IMG/VR virus record: IMGVR_UViG_3300030107_003246
Span: 1 to 57,180 of that record
Reading direction: 5' to 3' (one strand)
DNA: 57,180 nt
DNA from: a virus
Taxonomy: Duplodnaviria; Caudoviricetes
In this document: positions 26,997-54,065 of the stretch, in pieces
Layout of the letters: every line of letters begins with the position of its first letter
How positions within the stretch are numbered: the first letter of the stretch is position 1
The notes under the pieces: model-generated
Told to the model about the DNA's origin: nothing
Seen by the model: the letters and a program-made list of their open reading frames with translations, nothing else
Databases searched by the model: none
Position numbers and translations under genes: made by a program

Positions 26997-28304
26997 ATGT
27001 CTAACCTTAAATATATAGGTAAAAATATATTAAAACACGACCTCGAAGTTCGTAGAGGTAATGTAAGTGGTTCGTCTGCCTCGACTGGCTCATTTGGATT
27101 ATCTCAGATAGATGGTATTGATTTAAGAACAACTGGAGTTTCTCGTGATGAAGTTTTAAAATTTAATGGAACAAGGTTTGTTCCAGCAGCGCATGATGCT
27201 ACTTTTGTATTTTCAATAGCAGATTTTGATATGAATTATTCAACCTCACCAACATTAATTGGTTCAGGTTCTTGGAAAGCCGCAGGTACTATCACATTTA
27301 CTGCAACTTATAATAACGGTCCGCCTGATGGATTTGAGGGAAGTTCTGCAGGAGCGCCAAAAATTCAAGGTTATGTCAATAGTTCAATAAGTAGTTCATA
27401 TGATATGTTTCCATTGAGTTCAAGCTTTACATCAGGAACAAATCCTATGGCTATAACTTTTCCATTAACGAGTGGACACGATATAAGATTTAGATTATTT
27501 GCTTCAGCTGGAAGTGATACTAGTAATAGTTATACAGACCAAAGAATATATTTTAGAAATCAATTTGTTTATGGTGAAATAAGTAAGAACAATGGATTTG
27601 CTCAAGCAGATATAAGAACATTAGCAGCTGCCAATACAGTTACTACTAATGATACAACAAGAACACTTACAGTATCAGTTGGTGGTTCTAATTATTTGGC
27701 ATTTGCACATAGAAGTGGTGATACTAATGTAGCACAAGTAAGAGCTGGTAGTGGTGCTAATTTATTAACTGTTGCTATGGACAGAACAGATGCTACTGCA
27801 CTAACACCATTAAAGGAAACAGTAAGTTATTTAAATACTGCTGGATTTACAGAAAACTTTCTTGTGTACGCTAGTGCAATAGCTAATGTAGATGCACACT
27901 CAACAACTTTTACTACAGTAACATCTACACAAAAGAAAAATTATTTTATTTGGGGATTCGATGCACAAGCAGATAGTTATGATGAAAGTTTCTTAGAAAC
28001 TTCAGGTGATTGGGATTCCTACAATGCAAACTCTTCATATGATGATGGAAATATCATAAGCCAAACATTAAGTGTTGGTTCTTTTACAGACAAATATGTT
28101 ATAATAGCTTTTCCAGATAGGTATGGAGATAATGCATCAGAATTTCAATTTAAAGATAATGGTACAGGTTTACCTTTTGATGTAACAGCACAGAGTGATG
28201 TCACAGTAACAAATGTAGTTGGTTTTCAAGAAACGTATCACGTTTGGAGATCGACAAATTTATTAACAATGAGTAATCTAACGATTCTCATAGATTCGGT
28301 ATAG
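26997..28304 (+). CDS. Virion structural protein with two related C-terminal beta domains
   Basis: NVSGSSASTGSFG; repeated unit YLAFAH...NTAGFTENFLVY and YVIIAFP...NVVGFQETYHVW. Confidence 0.6.
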   Translation: MSNLKYIGKNILKHDLEVRRGNVSGSSASTGSFGLSQIDGIDLRTTGVSRDEVLKFNGTRFVPAAHDATFVFSIADFDMNYSTSPTLIGSGSWKAAGTITFTATYNNGPPDGFEGSSAGAPKIQGYVNSSISSSYDMFPLSSSFTSGTNPMAITFPLTSGHDIRFRLFASAGSDTSNSYTDQRIYFRNQFVYGEISKNNGFAQADIRTLAAANTVTTNDTTRTLTVSVGGSNYLAFAHRSGDTNVAQVRAGSGANLLTVAMDRTDATALTPLKETVSYLNTAGFTENFLVYASAIANVDAHSTTFTTVTSTQKKNYFIWGFDAQADSYDESFLETSGDWDSYNANSSYDDGNIISQTLSVGSFTDKYVIIAFPDRYGDNASEFQFKDNGTGLPFDVTAQSDVTVTNVVGFQETYHVWRSTNLLTMSNLTILIDSV

Positions 28305-28313: not shown

Positions 28314-31300
28314 ATGGGCGTAAAAGTAACAGGACAATTTGAACCCGCAGGTGATTTTTCTATAGTAGATGGCGCAGATGTATCTGGAGCTATCACTGGT
28401 AGTCACTTTAGTGGTTCAGCTGCTTCAACAGGCTCATTCGGGCGTTTATTTGTTTCTTCATCTATGGAGCTTGGTGGTGGAATATTCACATCTGCTTCGA
28501 TAGCATCAGGTGGTGCTACTGGTGGAACTGGTGGTACTGGAACTGGTGGAACTGGTGGTACAGGTCAAACAGGCGGAACAGGTGGTACTGGTCAAACAGG
28601 CGCTACAGGTGGCACTGGTGGTACTGGCGGAACTGGTCACACAGGTGGTACTGGTGGTACTGGGCAAACAGGTGGTACTGGCGGAACTGGACAAACAGGT
28701 GGTACTGGTGGTACAGGAGAAACTGGAGCAACTGGTGGCACAGGCGGAACTGGTGGAACTGGTACTGGTGGTACGGGCGGAACTGGTCAAACTGGCGGAA
28801 CTGGTGGCACAGGTGAAACTGGCGGAACTGGTGGAACTGGTCACACAGGAGGAACTGGTGGTGTAGGTGCTACTGGCGGAACTGGTGGTACTGGTGGCAC
28901 AGGTGAAACAGGCGCTACAGGCGGAACTGGCGGAACTGGTGGAACAGGTACTGGTGGTACTGGCGGAACAGGTCAAACTGGCGGAACTGGTGGTACAGGT
29001 GAAACTGGCGGAACAGGAGGAACTGGAGCAACTGGTGGAACAGGTGGAACTGGTACTGGTGGTACTGGTGGAGATGGTGCTACGGGCGGAACTGGTGGTA
29101 CTGGTGGTGCTGGTACTGGTGGTACTGGTGGAACTGGGCAAACAGGTGGTACTGGTGGCACAGGTCAAACTGGTGGTACTGGTGGCACAGGTCACACAGG
29201 TGGAACAGGCGGAACTGGAACTGGTGGTACTGGTGGAACAGGCGCTACAGGTGGCACAGGTGGAACTGGTGGACAAGGTACTGGTGGTACTGGTGGAACT
29301 GGACATACAGGTGGAACAGGTGGAGATGGAGCAACAGGCGGAACTGGCGGAACTGGTGGCACAGGAGAAACTGGTGCAACTGGTGGAACTGGCGGAACTG
29401 GTGGAACAGGCACTGGTGGAACTGGTGGTACTGGACATACAGGTGGAACAGGTGGTACTGGACAAACAGGCGGAACTGGCGGAGATGGTGCTACGGGCGG
29501 AACTGGCGGAACTGGTGGAACAGGCACTGGTGGTACTGGTGGCACAGGTCAAACTGGTGGAACAGGCGGAACTGGTCAAACTGGCGGAACTGGCGGAACT
29601 GGGCATACTGGTGGTACTGGTGGAACGGGCACTGGTGGAACAGGTGGTACTGGAGCAACTGGTGGCACAGGTGGAACTGGTGGACAAGGAACTGGTGGTA
29701 CTGGTGGTACTGGTCACACAGGTGGAACTGGTGGAACTGGAACTGGTGGAACAGGTGGAGATGGTGCTACAGGTGGTACTGGTGGAACTGGACAAACTGG
29801 AGCAACAGGTGGAACTGGTGGTACTGGTGGACAAGGAACAGGCGGAACAGGTGGAACTGGACATACTGGTGGTACTGGTGGCACAGGTGGAACTGGAGAA
29901 ACGGGCGCTACTGGTGGTACTGGTGGAACTGGTGGAACAGGCACTGGTGGAACTGGCGGAACTGGGCAGACAGGTGGAACTGGTGGTACAGGTCAAACTG
30001 GCGGAACAGGTGGAACTGGAGAAACAGGCGGAACTGGTGGCACAGGTCACACAGGTGGAACAGGTGGAGATGGAGCAACAGGCGGAACTGGTGGAACAGG
30101 TGGAACTGGAACTGGTGGAACTGGTGGTACAGGCGCTGCGTCTACCGCTACTGGGGGTACTGGAGGAACTGGTGAAACAGGTGCAACGGGAGGCACAGGT
30201 GGAACTGGTGGAACAGGTACTGGCGGTACTGGTGGAACAGGCGCTACAGGTGGAACTGGCGGAACTGGTGGACAAGGAACTGGTGGAACTGGTGGTACTG
30301 GTCACACAGGAGGAACTGGCGGAACTGGACAGACAGGCGGAACTGGTGGAACAGGCGCTACAGGTGGTACTGGTGGAACTGGTACTGGTGGAACAGGTGG
30401 AGATGGAGCAACTGGTGGCACTGGTGGTACAGGTGGAACTGGGGAAACAGGCGCTACAGGTGGAACTGGTGGAACAGGCGGAACAGGCACTGGTGGAACT
30501 GGTGGTCAAGGTGCAACTGGTGGTACTGGTGGTACAGGTCACACAGGCGGAACTGGTGGAACTGGAGCAGCTAGCACAGCAACTGGTGGTACTGGTGGAA
30601 CTGGAGAAACAGGTGCCACAGGCGGTACTGGTGGTACTGGCGGAACTGGTACTGGTGGTACTGGTGGTGTAGGTGCTACTGGCGGAACTGGTGGCACAGG
30701 TCACACAGGCGGAACAGGCGGAACTGGACATACTGGTGGTACAGGTGGAACTGGAACTGGTGGAACAGGAGGAACTGGAGCAGCTAGCACAGCAACTGGT
30801 GGTACTGGTGGTACTGGTCAAACAGGCGCTACTGGTGGTACAGGTGGAACAGGCGGAACTGGCACTGGTGGAACTGGTGGTACTGGTGAAACAGGTGGAA
30901 CTGGTGGCACAGGTCAAACTGGTGGAACTGGTGGAACTGGAGCGACTGGTGGAACTGGCGGAACTGGAACTGGTGGAACAGGTGGAGATGGAGCAACTGG
31001 TGGAACTGGGGGAACTGGTGGTACAGGTGAAACTGGAGCAACTGGTGGTACTGGTGGTACTGGTGGAACAGGCACTGGTGGTACTGGTGGTGTAGGTGCT
31101 ACAGGAGGAACTGGCGGAACTGGACATACAGGTGGAACTGGTGGAACTGGAGCAGCTAGTACAGCAACAGGAGGAACTGGTGGTACTGGACAGACAGGCG
31201 CTACAGGTGGAACTGGTGGTACTGGTGGAACTGGTACTGGTGGTACTGGTGGTGTAGGAGCAACTGGCGGAACTGGTGGAACTGGGCATACTGGTGGCAC

Positions 31301-34300
31301 TGGTGGAACAGGTCATACTGGTGGAACAGGTGGAACTGGAACTGGTGGTACAGGCGGAACTGGCGCTGCGTCTACAGCAACTGGCGGAACTGGTGGTACT
31401 GGAGAAACAGGTGGAACAGGCGGAACTGGTCAAACTGGCGGAACTGGTGGTACTGGACAAACAGGTGCTACAGGCGGAACTGGTGGAACAGGTGGAACTG
31501 GTACTGGTGGTACTGGTGGAGATGGTGCTACTGGCGGAACTGGCGGCACAGGTCAAACTGGCGGTACTGGTGGCACTGGACATACAGGCGGAACTGGCGG
31601 AACTGGTACTGGTGGTACTGGTGGTGTAGGAGCAACTGGCGGAACTGGTGGCACAGGTGGAACTGGAGAAACAGGCGCTACTGGCGGTACTGGTGGTACT
31701 GGTGGAACTGGCACAGGTGGAACTGGTGGAACTGGAGCAGCTAGCACAGCAACTGGTGGTACTGGTGGAACTGGACAAACTGGAGCAACTGGTGGAACAG
31801 GAGGAACTGGACAAACAGGTGGTACTGGTGGTACTGGACATACTGGCGGAACTGGTGGAACTGGTACTGGTGGAACTGGTGGTGTAGGTGCTACTGGTGG
31901 AACAGGCGGAACTGGCGGCACAGGAGAAACTGGAGCAACTGGTGGTACAGGTGGAACAGGCGGAACTGGCACTGGTGGTACTGGTGGTCAAGGTGCTACG
32001 GGCGGAACTGGTGGTACAGGTCACACAGGTGGAACTGGCGGTCAAGGAGCAACTGGTGGAACTGGTGGAACTGGTACAGGAGGAACTGGTGGTGTAGGTG
32101 CTACTGGTGGAACTGGCGGAACAGGTGGAACTGGAGAAACAGGCGCAACTGGCGGAACTGGTGGTACTGGTGGAACAGGAACTGGCGGAACTGGTGGTCA
32201 AGGTGCTACGGGCGGAACTGGTGGTACTGGACATACAGGTGGAACAGGTGGAACTGGAGCAGCTAGTACAGCAACTGGTGGAACAGGTGGAACTGGACAG
32301 ACAGGCGCAACTGGCGGAACTGGTGGTACTGGTGGAACAGGCACTGGTGGTACTGGTGGTACAGGTCACACAGGTGGTACTGGTGGAACTGGAGCGCAAG
32401 GAGCGCAAGGTGCAACTGGTGGTACTGGTGGAACAGGCGGAACTGGTACTGGTGGTACTGGTGGTGTAGGTGCTACAGGTGGTACTGGTGGAACTGGCGG
32501 TACAGGTGAAACTGGAGCAACTGGCGGAACTGGTGGTACTGGTGGAACTGGTACTGGTGGAACAGGTGGTCAAGGTGCTACAGGTGGTACTGGTGGAACT
32601 GGAGCAACTGGTGGAACAGGTGGAACTGGAGCAACTGGTGGAACAGGTGGAACTGGAACTGGTGGAACAGGTGGTACTGGAGCAGCTAGTACAGCGACTG
32701 GTGGTACTGGTGGAACTGGTCAAACTGGCGGAACAGGCGGAACTGGAGCGCAAGGAGCGCAAGGTGCAACTGGAGGAACTGGTGGTACTGGACATACAGG
32801 TGGAACAGGCGGAACTGGTACTGGTGGTACAGGCGGAACTGGAGCGCAAGGAGCGCAAGGTGCAACTGGTGGAACAGGTGGTACTGGACAAACTGGAGCA
32901 ACAGGTGGAACTGGTGGAACAGGTACTGGTGGAACTGGCGGAACTGGGGCGCAAGGAGCGCAAGGTGCAACTGGTGGAACTGGTGGCACAGGTCAAACTG
33001 GAGCAACTGGCGGAACTGGTGGAACTGGAACTGGTGGAACAGGTGGTCAAGGTGCGACTGGTGGAACTGGTGGTCAAGGTGCTACAGGCGGAACTGGTGG
33101 TACTGGAGCGCAGGGAGCGCAAGGTGCGACTGGTGGTACTGGTGGCACAGGTCAAACTGGAGCAACTGGTGGTACTGGTGGTACTGGTACTGGTGGTACA
33201 GGCGGAACTGGAGCGCAGGGAGCGCAAGGTGTAACTGGTGGTACAGGCGGAACTGGAGCGCAGGGAGCGCAAGGTGCAACTGGTGGAACAGGTGGTACTG
33301 GTCAAACAGGTGCTACGGGCGGAACTGGTGGAACAGGTACTGGTGGAACTGGTGGTACTGGAGCGCAAGGAGCGCAAGGTGTAACTGGCGGAACAGGTGG
33401 TACTGGAGCGCAGGGAGCGCAAGGTGTAACTGGCGGAACAGGTGGAACTGGAGAAACAGGTGGAACAGGCGGAACTGGAGCAGCTAGTACAGCAACTGGT
33501 GGAACAGGCGGAACTGGAGCAACTGGTGGTACTGGTGGAACTGGTACAGGAGGAACTGGTGGTACTGGAGCAGCTAGCACAGCAACTGGTGGAACAGGTG
33601 GTACTGGACAAACTGGAGCAACTGGTGGAACAGGTGGAACTGGTCAAACTGGCGGAACTGGTGGTACTGGAGCAGCTAGTACAGCAACTGGTGGAACAGG
33701 CGGAACTGGAGCGCAAGGTGCAACTGGTGGAACTGGTGGAACAGGTACTGGTGGAACAGGTGGAACTGGAGCAGCTAGCACAGCAACAGGCGGAACTGGT
33801 GGAACTGGTGGTACAGGTGCTGCGTCTACAGCAACTGGTGGAACTGGTGGTACTGGTGGTACTGGAGCAGCTAGTACAGCGACAGGCGGAACTGGTGGCA
33901 CTGGACAAACAGGTGCTACGGGCGGAACTGGTGGAACTGGTACTGGTGGAACTGGTGGTACTGGAGCAGCTAGTACAGAAACAGGTGGAACTGGTGGTAC
34001 TGGTGGAACTGGAGCAGCTAGTACAGAAACAGGTGGTACTGGTGGTACTGGTGGCACAGGCGGAACTGGTGGAACTGGAACTGGTGGAACTGGCGGTCAA
34101 GGAGCAGCTGGTTCAGATGGTGATGATGGAGCGCAAGGTGATCAAGGTGCTCAAGGTGCTCAAGGTGCTCAGGGTGCTCAAGGTGCTCAAGGTCCTCAAG
34201 GTAATCAAGGTCCTCAAGGTGGTACTGGTGGAACAGGCGCTACAGGTGGTACTGGAGCTACTGGAGCAACTGGTGGTACTGGTGGTACTGGTGGAACTGG

Positions 34301-34844
34301 AGCAGCTAGTACAGCGACTGGTGGAACAGGTGGAACTGGAGCAGCTAGCACAGCAACAGGTGGAACTGGTGGAACTGGTGGAACAGGTGGTGCTGGTACA
34401 TCCGATGGTGGTACTTTTGACTTAGGTGCTACTCAATGTGATGGATTATATGTAGGTAATGGTGCAACCAATTCATCAGCGGCTACAGATACTGTTAGAT
34501 GTGAGGGTGATGTTATTGCTTTCTACTCATCAGATGTAACCTTAAAAGAAAATATTATTCAAATTGAAGATCCTTTAGAAAAGCTGAAAAAGATAGGTGG
34601 TTATACTTATGATTGGAAGGATAGTTATATTGAATCACAAGGTGGTTTAGATGATAAATTTATGAGAAAAAGTGATGTTGGTGTTTTGGCTCACGAAATA
34701 AAAGAAATTATGCCAGAGGTTGTTGGTGAAAATAAAAGAACAGGAATATTGGGTGTTAAATATGAAAAAATAGTTCCGTTGTTAATTGAGTCTATCAAAA
34801 AATTAACAGAAGAATTAGAGGAGTTAAAAAATGGCAGTTCCTAG
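28314..34844 (+). CDS. Giant Gly-Gly-Thr repeat (collagen/polyglycine-like) fibre with C-terminal S74-type chaperone
   Basis: 2176 aa; G-X-T triplets; C-terminal [50 protein letters not shown]. Confidence 0.85.
28509..34394 (+). repeat. About 5.9-kb coding tandem repeat, basic unit GGN-GGN-ACW, with higher-order blocks
   Basis: Degenerate 9-mers ggtggaact/ggtggtact/ggcggaact/ggtggaaca with variant triplets [21 protein letters not shown] and interruptions GT and AASTAT. Confidence 0.97.
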
Positions 34845-35880
34845 CACAGGCACTCTTAGTATGGTGGGAATCTTTTCAGAAAAAAATGAAGATGATTATA
34901 GTGCATTTAATGAAGATGGTGAATCTAATATAAGTTTACTTGGTTTATCTAGAGATGGTACTGATGATAGCAGTGGCGGAGATTTAACTATAAATACAGC
35001 TGGTGGTCAAGGGGGAGATGGAGTGGCGCCATACGCTATGAGTGAGTTTTATGGTTACGATCACGATTTAAGTATATCATATGCAGCTTTTATTCTTGAT
35101 GATTGGAATGAGGGAACAATAAATGCTGGTAATGATGTCAATATGGATACAAGAGCAACATTCAATACAACCGATTTTGAAGATGGTGACCTATATGTAG
35201 ACCACGGAACTAATCAAACTACAAACACTCAAACTGATAGACCTTTATGGACAACATATGGTACACCATCAATAGTTTCAGATGAAATGAGATTTACTAA
35301 TACTGATGAGACATATGGTATGTTTTGTAAGACAACAGACCAAAATAATCCTGGTATTAATAATGTACCTACAACTCAATGTGTTGCGTGGAGATTTAGA
35401 TTTTTTATGAATACTACTAATAATAAAGATTCGAATTTGCACATAAATATGAATACCACCAGTCATACTAATCCAGCAGTAACTACAAATTCTTATCAAT
35501 TTAGAATTAGGGATAATTCAGACCCTGCTACTGGAAGAATAGATTTTTATAAAAGAATTTCTACAACATCAAATACTTTATTGGCTAGTAGTACTTCAGG
35601 TGCTTACACTTTGGGAACAACTCAAGATTTTATTTTATCTTGGCATAGAGCTGGTACTGGTCGTTCAGCTACATATACTTGGAAGGTTGGTATGGCACCA
35701 ACCACAACACCTAGTGCTAATATAATAAAACATAATAATGAACTTACTGTAAATGATGGCACATATTTTATTGCTAGAGGAATTTCAATGAGAGCAGCTA
35801 AAGCTATGAGTGTGCCAACATCAACTCATTATCACTCTTATGATATGCTTTCTTGTGTACAGATGGATGACCCATCATAA
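34831..35880 (+). CDS. Putative fibre-tip adhesin / receptor-binding protein
   Basis: [11 protein letters not shown]...[12 protein letters not shown]-terminal attachment-type motif, then a lectin-like beta domain; overlaps the end of the S74 fibre gene. Confidence 0.55.
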
Positions 35881-36218
35881 TGGCTACATATTTTTCAGGA
35901 AGTGATGGTAATATTTATGTAGAACCATATGATAATCAATTTACAGCTTCATTATACAAAACTCAATATATTCAAATTGTTGAAGATGCAGATGATGATG
36001 ATGGTGTATCTACTATGCCTGGTATATTATACGATACAAGTAATAATATGTATCAAGAATATAAGTGGAGTGCTGCTACTCTTATAGATGGTAGTGGCAG
36101 TTTTGATGAATCAAATTTACAAGGGTGTATATGGGTTTATAATTTAACTGATTCTCAAAAAAACACAATAGAAAATGATGCTCAATACATAGCTACTTAT
36201 GTCACATCAAGTTTATAA
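35880..36218 (+). CDS. Small acidic hypothetical protein, likely fibre-associated
   Basis: TAATG coupling to the upstream gene; carries FSGS, FTAS, GSGS and VTSS motifs. Confidence 0.5.
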   Translation: MATYFSGSDGNIYVEPYDNQFTASLYKTQYIQIVEDADDDDGVSTMPGILYDTSNNMYQEYKWSAATLIDGSGSFDESNLQGCIWVYNLTDSQKNTIENDAQYIATYVTSSL

Positions 36219-36258: not shown

Positions 36259-37011
36259 ATGGGTTATAGTAATAGAGTAGAAAAAATAAAATACGATTTT
36301 GTATCACCATTCGGACCTAGCATAATGGTAGGAACTATTCCTGACAGCATATACGATGAGTTTAGTGAAATAATTCACAGAGTTATTGAAGAAAAACAAA
36401 GAAGTCACACAAAACAATTGTCAGGTAGATTAGATGAAGAATGGACTGTAGAGAGACAAGAATTATTTGAAACTAGAACTGAAGAGTTTATGACCTCTAT
36501 AGTTAATAAATATTGTACAGATTTATTGGAAAGACTTTATTCAGTTAAACATTTGTCTGAAGAAAATGACCGAAGTATTAAAGAACAAACAAATATTCCT
36601 ATAGAGGTTTTGAATACAGGTGGTTGGGTAAATAATATGGGAAGTTATGAATATAATCCAGTTCACTACCATCCGTTTTGTAATATAACGACTGTATTTT
36701 ATTTTAATAGTATTGATGGTGATTTTATAGACGAAATTATAGCACCTACAAATACGGAGAGAAATCATAATGCTCCACCATCAGAACCAGGAAATACAGA
36801 TGATGGTATGCTTGAAATAATTTACAACTCTTCACACTATTTTGAGTTGGGTACTATGAGGATAAAGCCAAAAGAAAAACAATTTTTAATTTTTCCAGCA
36901 CATTTATTACATCAGGTATATCCATTTATATCTAATAAAAAAAGAATTAGCGCTTCATTTAACTTTACAGTAAATGCTGATTCGCAAATTATAAATTATG
37001 GGGCGAGGTAA
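36259..37011 (+). CDS. 2OG-Fe(II) oxygenase (TIGR02466-like)
   Basis: GWVN...YNPVHYH, FPAHLLHQVYP, RISASFN. Confidence 0.85.
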   Translation: MGYSNRVEKIKYDFVSPFGPSIMVGTIPDSIYDEFSEIIHRVIEEKQRSHTKQLSGRLDEEWTVERQELFETRTEEFMTSIVNKYCTDLLERLYSVKHLSEENDRSIKEQTNIPIEVLNTGGWVNNMGSYEYNPVHYHPFCNITTVFYFNSIDGDFIDEIIAPTNTERNHNAPPSEPGNTDDGMLEIIYNSSHYFELGTMRIKPKEKQFLIFPAHLLHQVYPFISNKKRISASFNFTVNADSQIINYGAR

Positions 37012-38489
37012 TGAACGATTCTTTATATAAAAATGGTTATGTTGTATTAGAAAACTTCTTTACACAAAGACAAATAGATTTTTTTATGAATCAAGTAGTT
37101 GAGGCAAAATTAAATAATGATTTGACTTTAGGAAAAGATGCTGATGAAAATACTGATTTACATCCTATGAGTTGGAATGTAAATTCACATCCTGTTTGGC
37201 AAAATACTTTATATAGCGTCTTACCTCAAGTTTCTAAAGTAACCGATGAGATATTAATTCCTACATATTCTTACCAAAGAACATACATAAAAGGTGCTGA
37301 AATGTCACATCATACAGATTGGCCTTGGTGTCAAATATCAATTACTGTAAATATTGGACAATCACATCCTTATCCATTATATATAACAGACTTTCAAACT
37401 AAAAAATATGTGAAGATAAATCAAAAACCAGGTGATGCTTTATTGTATATGGGATATAATACATCTCATCATAGAAAGAAATTTGAGGGAGATTTTTATT
37501 CTCAATTATTTCTACATTATATAATAGATAATAATGAGATGCAACAATATAAAAGATTTGATGAAGAAATTTTTAATTTTGAATTGAAAGAAAATATGGA
37601 AAAGGTTTTCTATACTGATGGTGTTAAGAAAATTAAAAATGAAAAATTTTCATATAATATGAAAGAGGAAGATAAAAATAAAATTGTTCCATATCAAGCA
37701 AAAATGATGAGAAGTACTAATAGAAATCCTAGAATAGATATAAATGATTTTGGTACTGATATTAGTCTAAGAGGTGGGCAATATAAAACTAAACAACTTT
37801 ATCATTTTATGGATAGTATACATCAGACTAAAAATTCTTTAGAACCTAAATTTTGTAATGACCTTATAGATTTATATGAGGATTATGCTGAAAGAGGTGA
37901 TGTGTTTCACGGAATGACTCATAGAGGACTTGACAACGATTACAAAAACACAGGTGAAATGAATTTAATGGATGTGCCAGAGGGTAAAGACTTTACAAAA
38001 ACATTACAGAGTGTATCAGATCATTGTATAATGATGTATATTAGAAAGTTTGGACTAATGGAACACTACGACCCATTTGAAATAACTGCTGGTGGTGCTT
38101 ACTATCCAATGTGGGAAGTACATAAATACGAAAAAGGTATAGGACATTATGAAGCTTGGCATACTGAGGGTGCTAATCTTTATGAATATGGAAATAGAAT
38201 TTTTGTTAGTATGTTTTATTTAAATGATGTAGAAGAGGGTGGTAGAACTGTATTTCCTTTTACAGGTAATGGTATAAAATGTGAAGAAGGAAAACATTTA
38301 GCTTTTCCTTGTTACTGGCCTTATGTACATTATGCACAAACACCATTATCTTCTGATAAATACATAATCACTACTTGGCTTCAGAGTGTATGGCCAGAAG
38401 AATATCAAGAAAATTTTGTAAGAACTGAGGGGCACGATAAAGACAAAGACATTAGAAAGACAAAATTTATTTGGGATAAGGGTGGATAA
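37011..38489 (+). CDS. Tandem two-domain 2OG-Fe(II) oxygenase
   Basis: Domain 1: PTYSYQRTY...HHTD...HHRKKF...QLFLHY. Domain 2: WHTE...MFYLNDVEEGGRT...YVHYA...KYIITTW. Confidence 0.85.
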   Translation: MNDSLYKNGYVVLENFFTQRQIDFFMNQVVEAKLNNDLTLGKDADENTDLHPMSWNVNSHPVWQNTLYSVLPQVSKVTDEILIPTYSYQRTYIKGAEMSHHTDWPWCQISITVNIGQSHPYPLYITDFQTKKYVKINQKPGDALLYMGYNTSHHRKKFEGDFYSQLFLHYIIDNNEMQQYKRFDEEIFNFELKENMEKVFYTDGVKKIKNEKFSYNMKEEDKNKIVPYQAKMMRSTNRNPRIDINDFGTDISLRGGQYKTKQLYHFMDSIHQTKNSLEPKFCNDLIDLYEDYAERGDVFHGMTHRGLDNDYKNTGEMNLMDVPEGKDFTKTLQSVSDHCIMMYIRKFGLMEHYDPFEITAGGAYYPMWEVHKYEKGIGHYEAWHTEGANLYEYGNRIFVSMFYLNDVEEGGRTVFPFTGNGIKCEEGKHLAFPCYWPYVHYAQTPLSSDKYIITTWLQSVWPEEYQENFVRTEGHDKDKDIRKTKFIWDKGG

Positions 38490-39042
38490 AAAATATAAAT
38501 TTACTGATGAATCTATATTAAAAGATAAAAGGATAGTAATGCACTCGTGGGAAACACCTGTGATGAAACAGATGGTTAGGTGGGTATGTGCTAATGGTGG
38601 TAATATTTTAGAAGTTGGTTTTGGTATGGGTATAGCATCTGATTTTATACAACAATATAATATAAGTTCTCATACTATCTGTGAAAACAATCCTGATGTT
38701 ATTGAGAGATTAAAAATTTGGGCTAAAGATAAACAAAATGTAAAAATTGTAGAGGGTGATTGGCATCGACACAGAGATAATTTTAAAAAATATGATGGTA
38801 TATTGTTTGATACATTTGACGATATGTATATAGAAAAATTTAAAAAGGAAACAGTTTACAAATTGTCAAAAGAAAAGACTAATTTTTGTATATGGGATAA
38901 TATGGAGAGTGAAACAGCGCCATATGAAAAATATCAAACGATGAAAATTAAAGTAAATAAATCATTTGAAGATAGTTGGAACTACCATCCAACAGATATT
39001 GTTTATGTACATAAAATTACTATAAATGGAGAAAGTAATTGA
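38482..39042 (+). CDS. Class I SAM-dependent methyltransferase, GAMT/Rmt2-like
   Basis: VMHSWETPVM, ILEVGFGMGI, HTICE, EGDW, YDGILFDTF; GTG start. Confidence 0.85.
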   Translation: MDKKYKFTDESILKDKRIVMHSWETPVMKQMVRWVCANGGNILEVGFGMGIASDFIQQYNISSHTICENNPDVIERLKIWAKDKQNVKIVEGDWHRHRDNFKKYDGILFDTFDDMYIEKFKKETVYKLSKEKTNFCIWDNMESETAPYEKYQTMKIKVNKSFEDSWNYHPTDIVYVHKITINGESN

Positions 39043-42000
39043 TAGAGGTTGTAAAGGACATAGAAATAGAAGTAAAATTTGATGCAGGTCCCTTTGTACA
39101 AATTACTTCTAAAGCTAAAAAAGATACTGAATATAATGTAGAGTTTTGGGATTCGGATAGTGATTACTTAGTATTTGATTCTATGATAAAAATTAATACG
39201 TGGACAGCTTTTTCTAGAAAGTGGTATACTAATTGGCGAATAGTGGTGTATGAAGATTCTAAATTAATTTATCAATATCAATTAGATTTAAAAGGTAAAG
39301 ATGTTTTTATAAGATTAGCTTCAAATATGTTAGGAGATAATTTTGCTTGGATTTCATATGTAGAAGAATTTAGAAAAAAACACAATTGTAATATATTTTG
39401 TGGAACATTATTTCCAGAAATATTTGAAGAAACTTATGATTTTACTTTTTGGAAAGAAGGTTCAGAATGGCCATCAAAAGAATTTTACGCTACATATGAA
39501 GTTGGGGTTTTTGGTTATAAAAATGAAGAACCATTTTATGAATTTGATAATTCTTGTAACAAACAAAGTTTATCTGATATTTCTATGCAACAAGCGGCTA
39601 CTGATATATTAGGACTACCATATAAAGAAATTAAACCAAAACTCAACTTAGAAAAATTTGAAAGTAAAAATAAAATTGAAGGTAAATATGTTTGTATAGG
39701 AATACACGCTAGCGCACAACTTAAATATTGGAATTACGAAAATGGTTGGCAAAAAATAGTTGATTATTTTTTGAATATTGGATATAAAGTTATATATTTA
39801 TCTAGAGAGAAGTCAGGTTTTATGGGAAATAAAATTCCAACTGGCGTTATTGATAAATCAGGTGACTTGCCGTTAGAAGATAGAATTGGTGATTTAAAGA
39901 ACGCCGAACTATTTATAGGTACAAGTTCAGGATTAAGTTGGTTGGCTTGGGCTGTAGATATTCCAGTGGTTTTAATTCACGGACACAATCATTCTTGGTA
40001 TAATTTTGCTGATAAAACAAAACATATCAACTTAGAAAATGATGATAGTGTTTGTACAGGTTGTTGGCATACCGATGGATTTGCACCAGGAGATTGGTAT
40101 TTTTGTCCAAAACACAAAGATACAGATAGACAATTTGAATGTACTAAAAAAATAACACCTGAAATGGTAATAGAGGGAATAGAAGTTATGCTAAATGATA
40201 AACAAAAATCGATTAAAACTTTACAAAGTGCTATAAATTTAACAATGGATGTAACATCAGAAGTAGGAAAGATGTGGTTTTACAATACTACTAAATCTGA
40301 GTTTTACGTTAGAGTGGTAGATCCTTATTCTGATTTAACTTTATATACTTCAAAAATAACTTTTGAAGATAATACTGCTTTTTGGCTTCCATTTAAATAT
40401 GTTACTCCTTGGGAAAATTATTATTTAGATAAATTAAACGTTGAAGTTTATACAACCGACCAAACAAAAATTAAAACATTTGATGTCAAATTAAATGACA
40501 ATGTTGTTAATAATAAAGATGAATTTAAATATGTAACCAATAAATTTGATGTAAGTTGGGCAAACCACAAAGAGATATTTTATGCAGATGAGTATAAAGG
40601 TTTATTTGATTTAAACGAAGATTCTGTGGTTTTAGATTTAGGTGCACATATAGGAGTTTTTACGAGATGGGTTTCAAAACAAAATGTTAAAGTTTGTTAT
40701 TCATTAGAACCAAATCCAACTTTATGGAATGGACTTAATAAAACATTTGAAAATTCAGATAATGTTAAACTTTTAAATAATGCATTAGGAGAACTTACTG
40801 AAGATAGATGGTTAAAGTATCCACAATATTCTACATCAAATGGTTCTTTTTATATCAATGATTGGCCTGAAATAGAAGATTGGGTTAATCCTACTAATTA
40901 TAATAATCCATTTACATACGAAAGAGATATAGTGGTTTCTAATATCAAATGCCTGTCATTTGATGATTTTATTGAACAAAATAAAATAGAAAAAATAGAT
41001 GTTATAAAATGTGATGTAGAAGGCGCTGAGTATGAAATATTTCGTAATGCAAGTGAAGATTATTTAAAAGAAAATGTTAGTACAATTTTATTAGAATTTC
41101 ATCACAATAAAGATAGATTAAAACCCATATTAGATAAATTAATAAAATGTGGATTTTTAGTTAAATATTTAAAAGGTGATGCTGACGCATATGATGGAAC
41201 TATTTTATTTACAAAAAAGAAATCAAAACCTGTAAAGGTTGGTGAAGATAGATGGGTTATGGGTGCAAATATTGGACACGACTCTGGCGCTACATTGGTT
41301 AAAAATGGTAAAATATTCGTTTCAGTAAATTCAGAAAGAATTACTAGAATAAAGCACGATGAAGCTAATGATGATTTTCCTTGGAAAGCTATGGACTATT
41401 GTTTAGATTATGCTGGGATAAAGAAAGATGATTTAGAAAGAATTGTTTGGAATGGTATAGGATTACCTCCCGAATTAGCTATAGATCCAAATGGACTTTG
41501 GGCTAGTAGATTAAAAGAGAATGGTTATAATTTTTCTGAAGATAGATTAAATTATTGTACACATCATTTAGCACACGCTTATTCAGCACATTACTCAAGT
41601 GGATTTGAAGAATCAGTTTCAATCGTAGTCGATGCTGGTGGAGAAACTAATTATAGAGAAGTAATTGATAAATTTTTTACTAATAAAATAGCACATATGA
41701 AAAAATATCCAATAGAAAAATGTGTGGAAGCTAGTAGTATTTATGAAATTAAAAAGGGTGTATTCACTAAAATATATTCTGCTTTCAAACCTTTTCCCGA
41801 AGCTGATTTATGGCCGACATTAGGACAATCAATTGGAGAATTTTATGCTTTAGGTTGTAACTATATAGGTATGGATGGTTTATATGATGCTGGAAAACTT
41901 ATGGGATTAGCTTCATATGGTAGACCTGAAGAATCTAAAAAAAGATTTGATGAACCAGTTGTGTATTTAGATCCAGATCCTAAATCAGGAGATTACTTTA

Positions 42001-43034
42001 TAAGAGTGCATCACGCTGTTCCGAGAGAAGAACAAACTTCAGAAACTCTTATGTATATAGATACACCGAGACCAATATATTGGAATTCTAATATATCAGG
42101 TGAAGATTTTCAATCGAAAGCCGATTGGGCTTGGATGGTTCAACATCAATTCGAAAAAATGATATTGTTTTTAGCTAAGAAAGCTTCAATGAATTCTAAT
42201 GTTAAATACTTAACAGGTTCTGGTGGTTGCTTTCTTAATTCAATTGCTAATCAAAAAATAGTTGATTTAGGTTTATTTGATGACCACTTTTATGTACCAG
42301 CATCGGATGATGGTGGCATATCAATTGGAACTGCCTTTTATGGATATTATAATTTTCATCCTGATAAAGGTAAGGTAAATTTAAATAATAAAGAAGAGAC
42401 TGTTTTTATGGGTAAGGATTACTCTGAGGAGGAAATAATGAGTGATATAGAAAATTTTGATAAAATAATTTATGAAAAAATTGAGGATGAAGAGGAGTTA
42501 GCTAAAAAAGTTGCTTCTTTTGTACACGATGGAAAGGTTGTTGGTTTCTTTCAAGGTGGTAGTGAAATGGGGCCTAGAGCATTAGGACATCGTAGTATAT
42601 TAGGAGACCCAACTCATCCCGATATGCAAGATATAATCAATAATAGGGTAAAACATAGAGAGTGGTACAGACCTTTTGCTCCTGCTTGTACTGTAGAAGA
42701 TGCTCATAAATATTTCACACATACTACAGAAAGCCCTTATATGTTGTTAATAGCTCAAGTAAAAGAAGAATTCAAAGAGAAGTTGCCATCTATAACACAC
42801 GTAGATGGAACTGCTCGATTACAAACTGTAAGGAGAGAAACTAATCAGAGGTACTATGATGTGATAAAAGAGTTTGGAAAACTATCGGGTATTCCAGTAG
42901 TTTTGAATACTTCTTTTAATGAAGCTGGTGAACCTATAGTAGAAACTCCTGCTGATGCTATAAGATGTTTTCTTAAAAATGATATTGATTATTTAGTTGT
43001 AGAAAATTATTTAATAACACCAATCAGAGACTAA
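39039..43034 (+). CDS. Trifunctional fusion: TibC/Aah-like protein O-heptosyltransferase, FkbM methyltransferase and NodU/CmcH carbamoyltransferase
   Basis: LGDNFAW, FIGTSSGLSWLAWA, VCTGCW...CPKH...QFECTKKI; VLDLGAHIGVF, KCDVEGAEY, LLEFHH; HHLAHAYSA, GKLMGLASYG, GPRALGHRS, KHREWYRPFAP, LNTSFN. TTG start after GGAG. Confidence 0.88.
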   Translation: MIEVVKDIEIEVKFDAGPFVQITSKAKKDTEYNVEFWDSDSDYLVFDSMIKINTWTAFSRKWYTNWRIVVYEDSKLIYQYQLDLKGKDVFIRLASNMLGDNFAWISYVEEFRKKHNCNIFCGTLFPEIFEETYDFTFWKEGSEWPSKEFYATYEVGVFGYKNEEPFYEFDNSCNKQSLSDISMQQAATDILGLPYKEIKPKLNLEKFESKNKIEGKYVCIGIHASAQLKYWNYENGWQKIVDYFLNIGYKVIYLSREKSGFMGNKIPTGVIDKSGDLPLEDRIGDLKNAELFIGTSSGLSWLAWAVDIPVVLIHGHNHSWYNFADKTKHINLENDDSVCTGCWHTDGFAPGDWYFCPKHKDTDRQFECTKKITPEMVIEGIEVMLNDKQKSIKTLQSAINLTMDVTSEVGKMWFYNTTKSEFYVRVVDPYSDLTLYTSKITFEDNTAFWLPFKYVTPWENYYLDKLNVEVYTTDQTKIKTFDVKLNDNVVNNKDEFKYVTNKFDVSWANHKEIFYADEYKGLFDLNEDSVVLDLGAHIGVFTRWVSKQNVKVCYSLEPNPTLWNGLNKTFENSDNVKLLNNALGELTEDRWLKYPQYSTSNGSFYINDWPEIEDWVNPTNYNNPFTYERDIVVSNIKCLSFDDFIEQNKIEKIDVIKCDVEGAEYEIFRNASEDYLKENVSTILLEFHHNKDRLKPILDKLIKCGFLVKYLKGDADAYDGTILFTKKKSKPVKVGEDRWVMGANIGHDSGATLVKNGKIFVSVNSERITRIKHDEANDDFPWKAMDYCLDYAGIKKDDLERIVWNGIGLPPELAIDPNGLWASRLKENGYNFSEDRLNYCTHHLAHAYSAHYSSGFEESVSIVVDAGGETNYREVIDKFFTNKIAHMKKYPIEKCVEASSIYEIKKGVFTKIYSAFKPFPEADLWPTLGQSIGEFYALGCNYIGMDGLYDAGKLMGLASYGRPEESKKRFDEPVVYLDPDPKSGDYFIRVHHAVPREEQTSETLMYIDTPRPIYWNSNISGEDFQSKADWAWMVQHQFEKMILFLAKKASMNSNVKYLTGSGGCFLNSIANQKIVDLGLFDDHFYVPASDDGGISIGTAFYGYYNFHPDKGKVNLNNKEETVFMGKDYSEEEIMSDIENFDKIIYEKIEDEEELAKKVASFVHDGKVVGFFQGGSEMGPRALGHRSILGDPTHPDMQDIINNRVKHREWYRPFAPACTVEDAHKYFTHTTESPYMLLIAQVKEEFKEKLPSITHVDGTARLQTVRRETNQRYYDVIKEFGKLSGIPVVLNTSFNEAGEPIVETPADAIRCFLKNDIDYLVVENYLITPIRD

Positions 43035-43037
43035 TAA

Positions 43038-44327
43038 ATGACTTGGGTTTTAGGTGTAAACATAGGGCATCAATCTGGCGCTACTTTAGTAAGAAGTGGT
43101 AAGGTATTTGTTTCTATAAATTTAGAAAGAATTACTAGAATTAAAAATGACAATGGCTATCCACCGCCAGAAGAAAATAATTGGGATTATTCATTAATAG
43201 AATTTCCTTGGAAAGCTATGGACTATTGTTTAGATTATGCTAACATACAGAAAACGGATTTAGATAGAATTGTTTGGAATGGTATTGGTTTAACACCAGA
43301 CCAACAAATAAGTGTAGATGGATTTTTAGTTCAGAAGTTGAAAAAAAATGGATACGATTTGCCAAATGATAGATTAAATTATTGTACACATCATTTAGCA
43401 CACGCATACTCAACTCATTACTCAAGTGGTTTTGATGAATCTATTATTTTAGTAGCTGACAATGCTGGTGAAATGAATTACAAACAAACAGTAGATGATT
43501 TTGTAGAAAATAAAATAGCACATATCCAAAAAACAAGACTTGGTGAGTGTGTTGAAGCTACTAGTATTTACGAAGTTAAGAAAGGTGTATTTAAAAGAAT
43601 ATACTCTCGCTACAAAGCAGCTTACTCATATTTTAATACAGTAGGAAAACACAAAGATGGGTCTGGTTTTAGCACTAGATATAGGTTAGGAAAGTCACTT
43701 GGAGAGTGGTATTATGATAATTGTATTCACATAGGTTTGACTGGAGATGATGCTGGAAAACTTATGGGATTAGCTCCTTTTGGAGATGAAGAAAAAGTTA
43801 GAGAAAAGTATAAAGAACCAATGGTATACATTGATAAAGATCCTAAAGCTGGTGAATACTTAATAAGAGCTCACGAATATCTTCCATATGAAGAGCAAGA
43901 AGAATTGGATGAAATGTATATAAATACACCAATACCATCTTATATGAGTGATACTATATATGAAAATGATTTTCAATCTAAAGCAGATCATGCTTGGTTT
44001 GTACAAAATCAATTTGAAAGAGTTGTTGAATTTTTAGCTAAAAAGTGTTCAATGATTTCAGATGTCAAAAACTTTTGTGCTGCAGGTGGCAGTTTCTTAA
44101 ATTCTGTGGCAAATCAAAAAATAATAGATTTGGATATTTTTGATAATCACTTTTTTGTTCCAGCAGCTGATGATGGTGGTATAAGTTTAGGATGTGCTTT
44201 TTATGGTTACTTTAACTTTCATAGTAAAAAAGGAATTTTCAACTTATCTAATAGAGAGGATAGTGCTTTTATGGGAAAAAAATATAATGAAAAAGAAATA
44301 TTAGGAGCTCTTAATGAATATAGCTAA
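43038..44327 (+). CDS. Carbamoyltransferase N-terminal (Kae1-like) domain only, paralog of the preceding gene
   Basis: ERITRIK, HHLAHAYS, AGKLMGLAPFG, GGSFLNSVAN, PAADDGGISLG; ends before the GPRALG domain. Confidence 0.85.
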   Translation: MTWVLGVNIGHQSGATLVRSGKVFVSINLERITRIKNDNGYPPPEENNWDYSLIEFPWKAMDYCLDYANIQKTDLDRIVWNGIGLTPDQQISVDGFLVQKLKKNGYDLPNDRLNYCTHHLAHAYSTHYSSGFDESIILVADNAGEMNYKQTVDDFVENKIAHIQKTRLGECVEATSIYEVKKGVFKRIYSRYKAAYSYFNTVGKHKDGSGFSTRYRLGKSLGEWYYDNCIHIGLTGDDAGKLMGLAPFGDEEKVREKYKEPMVYIDKDPKAGEYLIRAHEYLPYEEQEELDEMYINTPIPSYMSDTIYENDFQSKADHAWFVQNQFERVVEFLAKKCSMISDVKNFCAAGGSFLNSVANQKIIDLDIFDNHFFVPAADDGGISLGCAFYGYFNFHSKKGIFNLSNREDSAFMGKKYNEKEILGALNEYS

Positions 44328-46260: not shown

Positions 46261-47870
46261 GTAAGGTATTTGGTATAATAGGTCACGCTCACGATTCTAC
46301 AGTTGCTTATATAGAAGATGGTGAAATAAAAGTGGTTATAGAAGAGGAGAGAATTCGTAAGATTAAATCTTGGGCACTTAGTGGGGTTTATCCGTGGTTT
46401 GCTATGGATACAATAGAAAATGATATGGGATATAAATTAGAGGATTCGGACTATATTTGTATAGCAGAAGTAGCAGAGCCAGATTTAGATAGATATAAAT
46501 CAGAAGAGATGAGAAGAAAGGTGGTTACATATCCACATCATTTACTTCACGCAGTTGGCGCATATTATACATCAGGTTTTAAAGAAAAGACTTTAGTTAT
46601 TACTCACGATGGAAGTGGTTTTAAAACTGTTGGTAGGGTTTATTTAGGTTATGATGATAAATTACATTTAGTACATAAACAACCAAAAGAAAAATCAGCG
46701 TCTATTGGACAATATTTTGGTCGTTGTACAACTCAGTTTGCACCAAAAGGAGCTGTGTGGCATTCTCTTAAAGATGAGGGAAAGCTTATGGGTATGGCTG
46801 GTCACGGAAAATATAATGAAGAGATGTATAATAAATTAAAACAATTATTACACTACACCAATGATTTGAATTTTGGTCCTTGTGGAAATTGGAATAGAGT
46901 AGAAACATTTTTTGAATCACTTCGTGAAGAGGAATCTGATTGGAGTGATAATTTCGAACTAAGAGCCGAGTGGGCTTTCAATGTACAAAAGTTATTAGAA
47001 GATGTTTTTTTAGAATATTTAGAAGATTTACATAAATTTTATCCTGAATATAAAAGGGTGGCAGTTGCTGGTGGCATTTTTGCTAATGTAAAATTAAATC
47101 AAAAAATAAATGAATTGGATTGGGTTGATGAAGTTTATGTGTATCCTGCTATGAGTGATTCTGGACTAGCATTAGCAGCTGCTATAATGAAATCAGTAGA
47201 ATTAGGTGAGTGGGAAAATAAAAGATTTGAAAATGTATTTTTAGGAAACGATTATACAAAAGACGAAATAAAAAAAGAAGAAAAAGAATGGAATTTCAAT
47301 AAAGAAAAATTTGACTCTAAAAAAGTTGCTAAACTATTAAATGATGGAAATATTATTGGTTGCTTTCAAGGAAAAATGGAATATGGACCTAGAGCATTGG
47401 GTTCAAGAAGTATTTTAGTTAGAGCTACCGATAAAGAGATGCACGAAACTTTAAATAATAGATTAGAAAGACACGAAATAATGCCATTTGCTCCAATTAT
47501 TTTAGGAGAGAAAGTAGATGATGTTTGTAAAAATACAAAATCAAAAATGACTGCAGAGTTTATGACAATGTGTTATACAGTAAAAGATGAGTGGGTTGAT
47601 AAAATACCAGCAGTAGTTCATAGAGTGGATAATACACTAAGACCTCAATTAGTTTTTAAAGAAAGAAATAAATTCTTTCATAGTATTTTAAATGAATATT
47701 ACAAAATATCTAAAATACCAGTTCTCTTAAACACATCTTTTAATGGTCACGGACAACCGATTATATATGATTTGAATCAGCCATTTGAACATTTAGAAAA
47801 AGGAACTGTTGATTATTTAGTTTTGGAAGATAATTTATATTGGAGTAAAAATGAGAAGAAGGCCGATTAG
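46257..47870 (+). CDS. Full-length NodU/CmcH carbamoyltransferase
   Basis: HDS, EEERIRKIK, HHLLHA, HDGSG, EGKLMGMA, GPRALGSRS, MPFAP, LNTSFNGHG. Confidence 0.92.
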   Translation: MSKVFGIIGHAHDSTVAYIEDGEIKVVIEEERIRKIKSWALSGVYPWFAMDTIENDMGYKLEDSDYICIAEVAEPDLDRYKSEEMRRKVVTYPHHLLHAVGAYYTSGFKEKTLVITHDGSGFKTVGRVYLGYDDKLHLVHKQPKEKSASIGQYFGRCTTQFAPKGAVWHSLKDEGKLMGMAGHGKYNEEMYNKLKQLLHYTNDLNFGPCGNWNRVETFFESLREEESDWSDNFELRAEWAFNVQKLLEDVFLEYLEDLHKFYPEYKRVAVAGGIFANVKLNQKINELDWVDEVYVYPAMSDSGLALAAAIMKSVELGEWENKRFENVFLGNDYTKDEIKKEEKEWNFNKEKFDSKKVAKLLNDGNIIGCFQGKMEYGPRALGSRSILVRATDKEMHETLNNRLERHEIMPFAPIILGEKVDDVCKNTKSKMTAEFMTMCYTVKDEWVDKIPAVVHRVDNTLRPQLVFKERNKFFHSILNEYYKISKIPVLLNTSFNGHGQPIIYDLNQPFEHLEKGTVDYLVLEDNLYWSKNEKKAD

Positions 47871-53264: not shown

Positions 53265-53287
53265 TTTTTAAACTCAATTATAATACG

Positions 53288-53314
53288 AAAAGCCCCACAT
53301 TAGTGGGGTTTTTT
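53288..53314 (+). terminator. Rho-independent terminator after sheath gene
   Basis: AAAAGCCCCAC-ATTA-GTGGGGTTTTTT. Confidence 0.9.
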
Positions 53315-53325
53315 GTTTTTGCTTG

Positions 53326-54042: not shown

Positions 54043-54065
54043 GGCAGTTAATCATAAAACAACTG

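Follow-up and report, generated by a model that had tools for sequence, protein, structure and literature searches.

Collagen-like proteins of bacteria and phages (PF01391; Bacillus BclA, streptococcal Scl and the prophage collagens of E. coli O157) have Gly at every third residue and Thr as the main residue at the Y position of the Gly-X-Y triplet, and candidate Gly-X-Y fibres, in which a phage-fibre shaft stands beside a trimerising non-collagen domain, have been described in cyanophage P-SSM2 (PMC1079782) and rhizophage PhiM9 (PMC4621102). In bacterial collagen-like proteins Thr is the predominant Y residue and Pro occupies 19-31% of X positions (PMC8968730). Here we analysed a fibre gene of a virus (Duplodnaviria; Caudoviricetes) represented by the IMG/VR record IMGVR_UViG_3300030107_003246, a metagenome-assembled viral contig of 57,180 bp that is estimated to be 32% complete; this whole stretch is referred to below as the window. 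The gene product shares with the proteins above Gly at every third residue, Thr at Y and a shaft next to a trimerising domain. It differs from them in that Gly takes ~68% of X positions, only 2 of the 1966 residues of its repetitive array are Pro, 64 stereotyped interruptions break the register, the array is very long (~600 triplets) and PF01391 does not match it. Collagen-like phage-fibre shafts and the S74 chaperone are already known; what is new is a family, small and found in marine phages, whose shaft is about two-thirds Gly-Gly-Thr, proline-poor, interrupted by two stereotyped register breaks and ~2000 residues long. The literature searched (subscription journals and supplements lay outside its scope) contained no account of a phage collagen that is built of Gly-Gly-Thr or free of proline.

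We tokenised the array (residues 66-2031) from left to right into 600 triplets. GGT accounted for 376 of them, followed by GAT (67), GQT (32), GAQ (25), GHT (22), GAA (19), GET (18), GGQ (12), GGV (8), GGD (8) and others. Gly was invariant at position 1. Position 2 was Gly in ~68% of triplets, Ala in 19%, Gln in 5%, His in 4% and Glu in 3% (A, Q, H, E and V making up ~32% in all), and position 3 was Thr in ~86% and never Gly. The residue composition (G 1053, T 602, A 149, Q 73, H 22, E 20, S 20, D 13, V 11, P 2, N 1) includes no Lys, and the only two Pro, at residues 1961 and 1967, each lie within a GPQ triplet. Two kinds of break interrupt the triplets: 46 Gly-Thr dipeptides, which give Gly-Thr-Gly (G1G), and 18 four-residue STAT or STET inserts after GAA (16 GAASTATGG and 2 GAASTETGG). 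Uninterrupted runs ranged from 1 to 25 triplets, the most frequent length being 11 (20 of 69 runs), and Tandem Repeats Finder (TRF) reported periods of 9, 105 and 372 nt, with a period of 35 residues at the protein level. The collagen hallmark of Gly at every third residue over long runs is present throughout these 600 triplets. The probability of Gly at position i+3 given Gly at position i was 0.808; in 200 residue shuffles this value averaged 0.535 and never exceeded 0.572. The longest G-x-(non-G) run had 25 triplets, and no shuffle gave more than 8. Shortly before the neck that follows the array, the register passes unbroken into canonical GAQ, GPQ and GNQ triplets. Composition and triplet parse thus confirm what a first-pass annotation had read from the letters alone, namely a nearly Pro-free Gly-Gly-Thr array of ~1960 residues at 28509-34394 (residues 66-2027) with two Pro only, both in GPQ at the far end, and a register broken by GT dipeptides and AASTAT inserts; the S74-type chaperone that it placed after the array was also recovered, as described below.

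The feature is real and belongs to a coding gene with native codon usage: the array encodes Gly, Thr and Gln with the same preferred codons as the other genes of the phage (GGT/GGA, ACT/ACA and CAA, respectively). The GC content of the window is 28-39%, except for a peak of 52-58% at 28-34 kb, which we attribute to the GGN, ACN and GCN codons imposed by the amino-acid composition and not to foreign DNA. Within the GGT triplet, the first Gly was encoded by GGT 274 times, GGC 89, GGA 12 and GGG 2, and the second by GGA 240 times, GGT 112 and GGC 25. Since the preference differs by position and TRF found a period of 9, this pattern could be a trace of growth from an ancestral 9-nt unit; alternatively, it could reflect selection against exact DNA repeats. 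An open reading frame (ORF) of 1864 aa also runs antisense to the array. Because its translation is S/T/C-rich and of low complexity, and because conserved ends, a fibre N-terminus and an S74 C-terminus, are linked in the plus frame alone, we regard the minus-strand ORF as an artefact of composition.

Both ends of the protein have relatives among phage fibres. The N-terminal anchor was identical to its counterparts at 33 of 49 aligned residues in L004 and likewise in L007, at 36 of 54 in L005 and at 35 of 62 in L006. In the sister contigs L004, L005 and L007 the same anchor (approximately the first 50 residues) heads fibres of 2000-2500 aa that are of ordinary composition and punctuated by ISGSxTSTGSFG motifs, and the L004 fibre matches the PHROGs 'tail spike protein' and 'virion structural protein'. 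As is expected of a long fibre, the gene is encoded in the structural and host-recognition region and has an attachment module common to other fibres. The earlier view that this is not a typical tail fibre is therefore correct only in part, since the gene sits in the fibre slot and shares its anchor with ordinary fibres.

At the C-terminus, Peptidase_S74 (PF13884) matched residues 2073-2137 of 2176 with an E value of 2.9e-11 and 43.9 bits against a cut-off of 22. The same region matched the distal subunit of the S16 long tail fiber (PDB 6f45_A, E 5.8e-5) and was 49% identical to the fibre C-terminus of Pelagibacter phage HTVC008M. The adjacent trimerisation domain that characterises collagen-like proteins is thus supplied here by Peptidase_S74. 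The junction Ser2073-D-V-T-L-K2078 fits the conserved SD...K of the S74 family, and S-D-x-x-L/I-K is likewise found in L014, G001, HTVC008M and S16 gp37. We take the conserved Ser and Lys of this junction to be catalytic, a role known from the endosialidase literature, and by analogy the chaperone is predicted to cleave itself off after Ser2073. S74 fibres and spikes such as the K1F endosialidase, the T5 L-shaped fibre and S16/T4-type gp37 resemble the window protein in PF13884, in the S-D-x-x-x-K junction and in the C-terminal position of the domain. In the solved cases the chaperone folds a triple beta-helix or a beta-structured tip, whereas in the window protein it is preceded by a Gly-X-Y array and a 42-aa neck. 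In HTVC008M (NC_020484.1; L002:5190-8396) we observed that the repetitive, fibre-like product of 1068 aa that bears this S74-type C-terminus is annotated as 'baseplate wedge initiator', as are two genes upstream of it, and that a 301-aa Gly-rich ORF (33% Gly) lies downstream; this annotation is probably a wrong transfer.

The best match to the C-terminal 148 residues was found in L014 (L014:2-6958). Its GPQ/GAQ/GAT collagen is uninterrupted over at least 2319 aa, runs off the end of the contig, contains 8.9% Pro and scores 240.8 bits with PF01391. If triple-helical, the L014 fibre would exceed 0.6 micron. Within a C-terminal alignment in which 99 of 188 residues are identical overall, its neck is nearly identical to that of the window protein; it is followed by the same S74 domain and the same two downstream genes, and the cassette lies upstream of the sheath gene, as in the window. 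The L014 fibre differs from that of the window in being uninterrupted, Pro-containing and PF01391-positive, and no transferase island was found in its record. Because in L014 it is a canonical collagen that precedes this neck, chaperone and pair of downstream genes, the GGT array occupies the place of the collagen rod; judged by alignment and gene order, canonical collagen and GGT array are alternatives within the same cassette. A word-based homologue search with residues 300-800 as the query returned 122 proteins, of which 120 were listed (1196-3808 aa). Among these 120, PF01391 was present in 115 and PF01391 together with PF13884 in 17, so that at the level of domain matches collagen plus S74 is a recurrent architecture. 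None of the 120 listed proteins was GGT-dominated, the closest in Gly at X being short linkers within large, apparently giant-virus-like proteins.

GGT arrays do, however, recur in other phages. A DNA pattern for the signature of the array, GGTGGTGTGGTGG, was scanned in IMG/VR, metagenomes and cellular genomes. In IMG/VR it occurred in two other phage records (49 and 38 matches), and in the metagenomes 18 of the 80 listed stretches contained at least 6 matches. In the genomes of 185,579 species, the 80 listed stretches had 1-2 matches apiece, which is consistent with chance in GC-rich DNA. G001 is a close relative of the window phage; nucleotide identity is 85-87% in the flanks and falls to 72-75% in the arrays. 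Its fibre of 2706 aa comprises an NPKYIGKN-type anchor, a 1138-aa GGT array, a domain of ~280 aa, an 839-aa GGT array, a head of ~250 aa and S74. L175 encodes a fibre of 2606 aa in which GGT runs reach 143 triplets. In G001, L175, L099 and L197, arrays of 839-1379 aa stand between differing N-terminal anchors and C-terminal tips; L175 and L197 end in other tips, that of L197 being the tip of the non-GGT fibres L004 and L005. A second anchor type (MSNLKYIGKNILNH...), carried in the window by the protein encoded immediately upstream of the fibre, is fused straight to GGT arrays in G001, L099, L154, L155 and L175. The GT break recurs in G001, L175, L099 and L197. The AASTAT break recurs in G001 and several metagenome fragments, whereas L175 and L099 have shorter AST/SAT/SST inserts instead. 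Since it is found between such various anchors and tips, the GGT array is, by sequence comparison, a portable shaft module of a phage clade, set between trimeric modules.

We consider it probable, although well short of certain, that the array is a flexible trimeric collagen-type thread in a host-recognition cluster, its structure being unproven. A parallel three-stranded helix of collagen type is suggested by the cassette equivalence with L014, by the restriction of obligatory Gly to one position in three and by the position of the array between trimeric domains. In such a fibre, three parallel chains would be held at the N-terminus by the short anchor that is common to the ordinary fibres of sister phages. 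The C-terminal Peptidase_S74 would trimerise the chains, nucleate shaft folding in the C-to-N direction and afterwards release itself by cleavage after Ser2073, comparable to a procollagen C-propeptide. The shaft would be a three-stranded polyproline-II (PPII) helix of ~600 Gly-X-Y triplets in which the first Gly alone is invariant. The 46 G1G and 18 AAST(A/E)T breaks would be local register shifts, mostly no more than 11 triplets (~10 nm) apart, and would act as hinges, giving a flexible thread and not a stiff rod. One-residue-short Gly-X-Gly breaks are found in type IV collagen and in the Gly-Gln-Gly kink of mannose-binding lectin, where they are thought to give a kink or flexibility. Compared with these animal collagens, the break in the window is always Gly-Thr-Gly, occurs 46 times, most often 11 triplets apart, belongs to what would be a homotrimer and has no Pro or hydroxyproline around it. 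Fully extended, the shaft could measure up to ~0.56 micron. The length of 0.55 micron given in the first-pass annotation agrees with this arithmetic (1966 x 0.286 nm = 562 nm), but only if the whole array is triple-helical. Because the triplets lack imino acids, stability would probably depend on the end clamps, on hydration of the ~600 Thr hydroxyls per chain and, plausibly, on O-glycosylation by the glycosyl-/carbamoyl-/sulfo-/methyl-transferase island encoded downstream; a separate lectin-like protein of 349 aa would dock on the bare neck and supply receptor binding. A more far-reaching picture can be entertained only tentatively: an imino-free (Gly-Gly-Thr)n collagen helix, forming half-micron threads of a marine phage clade that are stabilised by dense, phage-encoded Thr O-glycosylation, with glycans to which the neighbouring island adds carbamoyl, sulfate or methyl groups, and that have regularly spaced Gly-Thr-Gly hinges and a separately encoded lectin at the tip, or else an untwisted polyglycine-II-like trimer that would be a new fibrous fold.

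Several observations weigh against a collagen-type thread of this kind. Imino acids are absent from 598 of the 600 triplets, Gly at X is among the least stabilising residues in host-guest peptide work, and in studies of (Gly-Pro-Thr)n peptides Thr at Y contributes little stability when it carries no glycan; with no imino acids and Gly at X, the intrinsic stability of a triple helix should be low. PF01391 gave no match to the whole protein at E <= 0.01 and none to either of two array segments at E <= 10, including the segment with the canonical tract; the L014 fibre served as the control for this profile, and the composition filters of HMMER may contribute to the non-match. Among 40 PDB sequence matches at E <= 10 the strong ones were all collagens, BclA (1wck_A) included, which speaks for a collagen-type array, but these matches are largely compositional. 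AlphaFold2 (AF2) modelling of residues 560-860 as a monomer and without an alignment produced no fold, with a predicted local distance difference test (pLDDT) score of 31.6, although a single sequence makes this a weak test. Since the GGT arrays of L175 and L197 are without an S74 domain, the chaperone is not obligatory for them. The association with the transferase island comes from five incomplete contigs, and the main text of PMC7029224 takes the glycosyltransferases of such clusters to be modifiers of the host surface. Finally, no single piece from the public sequencing runs spans the whole repeat, and contigs built with k=31 break up inside it, so that the total array length rests on one assembly, on the lack of long exact repeats and on the similar lengths in relatives. 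A trimer prediction for three copies of residues 1830-2031 scored 0.13 against a mark of 0.32, was made without controls and is counted neither way. As a side observation, the third-best PDB match was 8zxl_X (also 9ius), a 780-aa chain labelled 'spindlefibril' and 'axialfibril', the aligned part of which consists of collagen-like GAP/GSQ/GLQ repeats; no publication describing it was found.

The absence of imino acids, the Gly content of 54% and a pLDDT of ~31 throughout would also suit an array without stable structure, namely an elastic tether, either disordered or transiently 3(1)-helical, with anchor and neck as the sole points of contact between its three chains. A parallel would be the Gly-Gly-X of spider dragline silk, where poly(Gly-Gly-X) is reported as disordered and non-beta (PMC5187823). 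We consider a tether rather unlikely, because a linker would not require strict Gly at every third residue over 600 triplets and because Y is never Gly. In addition, only two stereotyped kinds of break occur (GT in all four proteins compared, AASTAT in the window and G001), and the register is conserved between proteins that are only 72-75% identical at the DNA level; that the array replaces a canonical collagen likewise argues against a mere linker.

Alternatively, the array could fold back on itself into a polyglycine-II (PGII) or PPII bundle or a solenoid, with the breaks as turns and Thr in flat surface arrays. Such bundles (the snow-flea antifreeze protein 3BOG, S16 gp38 6F45, Obg and the Gly-rich domain of ALK) are also built of Gly-rich triplets, and one of them is a phage fibre adhesin (PMC12227593). 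Gly at two of three positions in 68% of triplets, with a small hydroxyl residue at the third, suits close PPII packing, and the breaks are quasi-periodic, as seen from the 35-aa period and the prevalence of 11-triplet runs. The described bundles are compact, however, with 6-14 short helices, whereas the array has ~2000 residues and neither a sequence match nor a predicted bundle: no PGII/PPII-bundle protein was among the 40 PDB matches at E <= 10, and the AF2 monomer, weak as it is as a test, contained none. Position 2 is occupied by Q, H, E, A or V in ~32% of triplets, so that position 1 alone is invariant, and the run lengths, which span 1-25 triplets in the window and extend to 143 in L175, define no unit of fixed size. 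Moreover, canonical collagen can take the place of the array within the same cassette, and in relatives the array joins parallel trimeric modules at both ends. A folded bundle is therefore quite improbable. Of the two structures that the first-pass annotation had proposed, the collagen-like filament is thus favoured by Gly invariance at position 1 only, by canonical triplets in register, by the L014 cassette and by the trimeric flanks; its polyglycine-II bundle is without support, and so is the associated idea of ice binding.

That the length or existence of the array is an artefact of short-read metagenomics, an assembly expansion of the kind the first-pass annotation had named as a refutation, is very improbable: although the contig is metagenome-assembled and incomplete, 399 31-mers are repeated and the k=31 contigs of public runs break up inside the repeat, the longest exact DNA repeat is only 57 bp, just three 55-mers recur and no exact repeat reaches 77 bp, arrays of similar kind are found in relatives from other records, and the frame stays open over 2176 codons, connecting two conserved end domains. 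Window positions 31729-33462 are matched at 99.0% identity by the full 1734 nt of L137, an independent metagenome contig. Half of the 24 listed public runs (12) contain at least half of the sampled words, these runs coming from 11 studies, and in three DNA studies short contigs with 95-100% identity account for 30, 29 and 30 of the 30 bins. Contigs of a metatranscriptome library touch the fibre gene, which is no indication of expression; bins that lack cover and the small shares in the RNA runs X18-X20 are likewise not taken to indicate absence, expression or habitat. Apparent joints within the repeat were rejected as repeat or k-mer artefacts, their sides being mostly 20-23 letters long (two of 34-41) and each being present in a single contig.

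Features of the fibre gene and of its surroundings are collected in Table 1.

Table 1. Positions in the window of the fibre gene, its parts and neighbouring features.
Feature	Position	Strand	Remarks
Whole fibre gene	28314..34844	+	Single ORF, 2176 aa plus stop
N-terminal anchor, aa 1-65	28314..28508	+	Common to fibre genes at the same position in relatives
Gly-X-Y array, aa 66-2031 (1966 residues)	28509..34406	+	600 triplets; 46 G1G and 18 AAST(A/E)T interruptions
Canonical collagen tract within array, aa 1930-1972	34101..34229	+	Includes (GAQ)5GPQGNQGPQ; in register with GGT triplets on either side
Neck, aa 2032-2073 (42 aa)	34407..34532	+	Cys2042 and Cys2063; resembles neck of L014
Peptidase_S74 intramolecular chaperone, aa 2074-2176	34533..34841	+	PF13884 match
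Antisense ORF, 1864 aa, spurious	28506..34100	-	By-product of the repeat
435-aa protein with second fibre anchor type (MSNLKYIGKNILNH...)	26997..28304	+	88% identical orthologues in L004 and L007
349-aa protein: ~80-aa N-terminal module and predicted concanavalin-A-like/LamG beta-sandwich	34831..35880	+	AF2, Foldseek, BFVD
112-aa protein of conserved cassette	35880..36218	+	Homologue with 49% identity in the corresponding place of L014
Two 2OG-Fe(II) oxygenases and a small methyltransferase	36259..39042	+	Domain matches; oxygenases adjacent at 36259-38489
Modification island (11 kb)	39039..50295	+	Domain matches; 87% nucleotide conservation in G001

All long ORFs of the window are on the plus strand. 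Upstream of the fibre gene lie genes for terminase, portal, major head (20551-22173), head-tail adaptor and gp15-like proteins (23937-25475), three small or uncharacterised genes and the gene for the 435-aa protein. Downstream, the 349-aa and 112-aa proteins, two oxygenases, a methyltransferase and the island are followed by sheath, tube and baseplate genes (50757-55699). The closest major capsid proteins in tblastn, with 49-54% identity, belong to an uncultured phage, Microcystis phage Mel-JY01 and Flavobacterium phage immuto, and megablast of the flanking genes against deposited phages gave no match; the window phage is a distant marine T4-type (far-T4) myovirus. A tRNA scan of the window found 0 genes. 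The T4 late-promoter motif TATAAATA matched 13 times versus 9.3 expected, a number reached in 15 of 100 shuffles, and thus gave no signal. Upstream of the terminase, at 5575-9366, we also observed a gene for a 1263-aa protein with ATPase-like, cytidylyltransferase-like and polynucleotide-kinase-like PHROG matches.

As in the host-recognition clusters of marine T4-like phages (pelagimyophages and cyanomyophages), fibre genes are mixed with glycosyltransferases in the structural region of the window, and proteins with collagen repeats and concanavalin-A domains have been noted in such clusters; the main text of PMC7029224, its supplements being outside the scope, describes no GGT-type shafts. 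The island encodes a 1331-aa protein combining GT9, FkbM methyltransferase and carbamoyltransferase, a carbamoyltransferase-N (429 aa), a sulfotransferase (648 aa), a further carbamoyltransferase (537 aa) and an 814-aa protein with GT2 and DUF5672. It lies directly downstream of the GGT fibre in both records that have downstream DNA (the window and G001) and was absent from 3 of 3 related records with a sheath gene but other fibres (G003, G004 and G005). The reverse test, starting from the island, yielded 5 loci and added no count, L118 being cut within the 1331-aa gene and L119-L121 being distant (35-43%). Co-occurrence with GGT fibres thus gives circumstantial backing to the earlier proposal that Thr glycosylation stabilises the fibre, and O-glycosylation of its Thr residues by the adjacent island is plausible on these grounds.

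Beside a distant island relative, in L120 (L120:1-1100), we observed a Pro-free collagen-like (Gly-Ser-Ser / Gly-Thr-Ser)n array of at least ~330 aa with an apparent frameshift, ending ...VVVYISSDPPSGGNNGDIWYQYDT. Immediately downstream of it begins a cluster rich in glycosyltransferases, one member of which is related to the 1331-aa island protein with 35% identity; this hints that hydroxyl-rich, Pro-free collagen-like proteins and transferase clusters occur together. The two 2-oxoglutarate (2OG)-Fe(II) oxygenases encoded ahead of the island were considered as collagen hydroxylases, but this reading was dropped: the array offers 2 Pro and not a single Lys, and the stretch that encodes the enzymes shows no DNA match of at least 300 bp to G001.

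The start of the 349-aa gene overlaps the fibre stop by 14 nt. An AF2 model of its product, based on a 30-sequence alignment, had a pLDDT of 74.5, residues 80-349 scoring mostly 76-95 per 10-residue block and 61-67 in two blocks. Searched with Foldseek against the PDB, the model matched legume lectins at E ~1e-7 and the CBM66 structure 4b1m_C (TMt 0.65), and against BFVD it matched LamG/concanavalin-A-like proteins and minor tail proteins. Homologues follow the collagen fibre of L014 (40% identity over 304 aa) and the GGT fibre of G001 (44% over 81 aa). The N-terminal module of ~80 aa is joined to many other C-termini, since 92 of the 120 listed homologues cover only 22-33% of the protein, and five listed module-bearing proteins of ~297 aa have Peptidase_S74. 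It has the motif MAVPS.G.LS..GI... and invariant columns at residues 71-77 (S71, F73, Y74, Y76 and D77; alignment A1, homologues P0154-P0245), and appears to be a docking module that is widespread among the tail proteins of marine phages. Because the mature fibre chain would end in nothing but the 42-residue neck, receptor binding would probably come from this lectin-like protein, which the model makes a candidate tip adhesin; gp38-type adhesins, which dock on gp37, offer an analogy for its docking on the neck. The 112-aa protein encoded next had no PHROG match.

If the array is triple-helical, it would be a test of the minimal sequence rules for collagen folding and of the role of Thr hydration and glycosylation, as well as a natural repetitive Pro-free scaffold for biomaterials. 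For the biology of marine T4-like phages, it points to very long flexible capture threads. It also suggests that the transferase islands of host-recognition clusters may modify the fibres of the virion itself instead of the host surface, an idea that the co-occurrence of island and GGT fibre makes testable.

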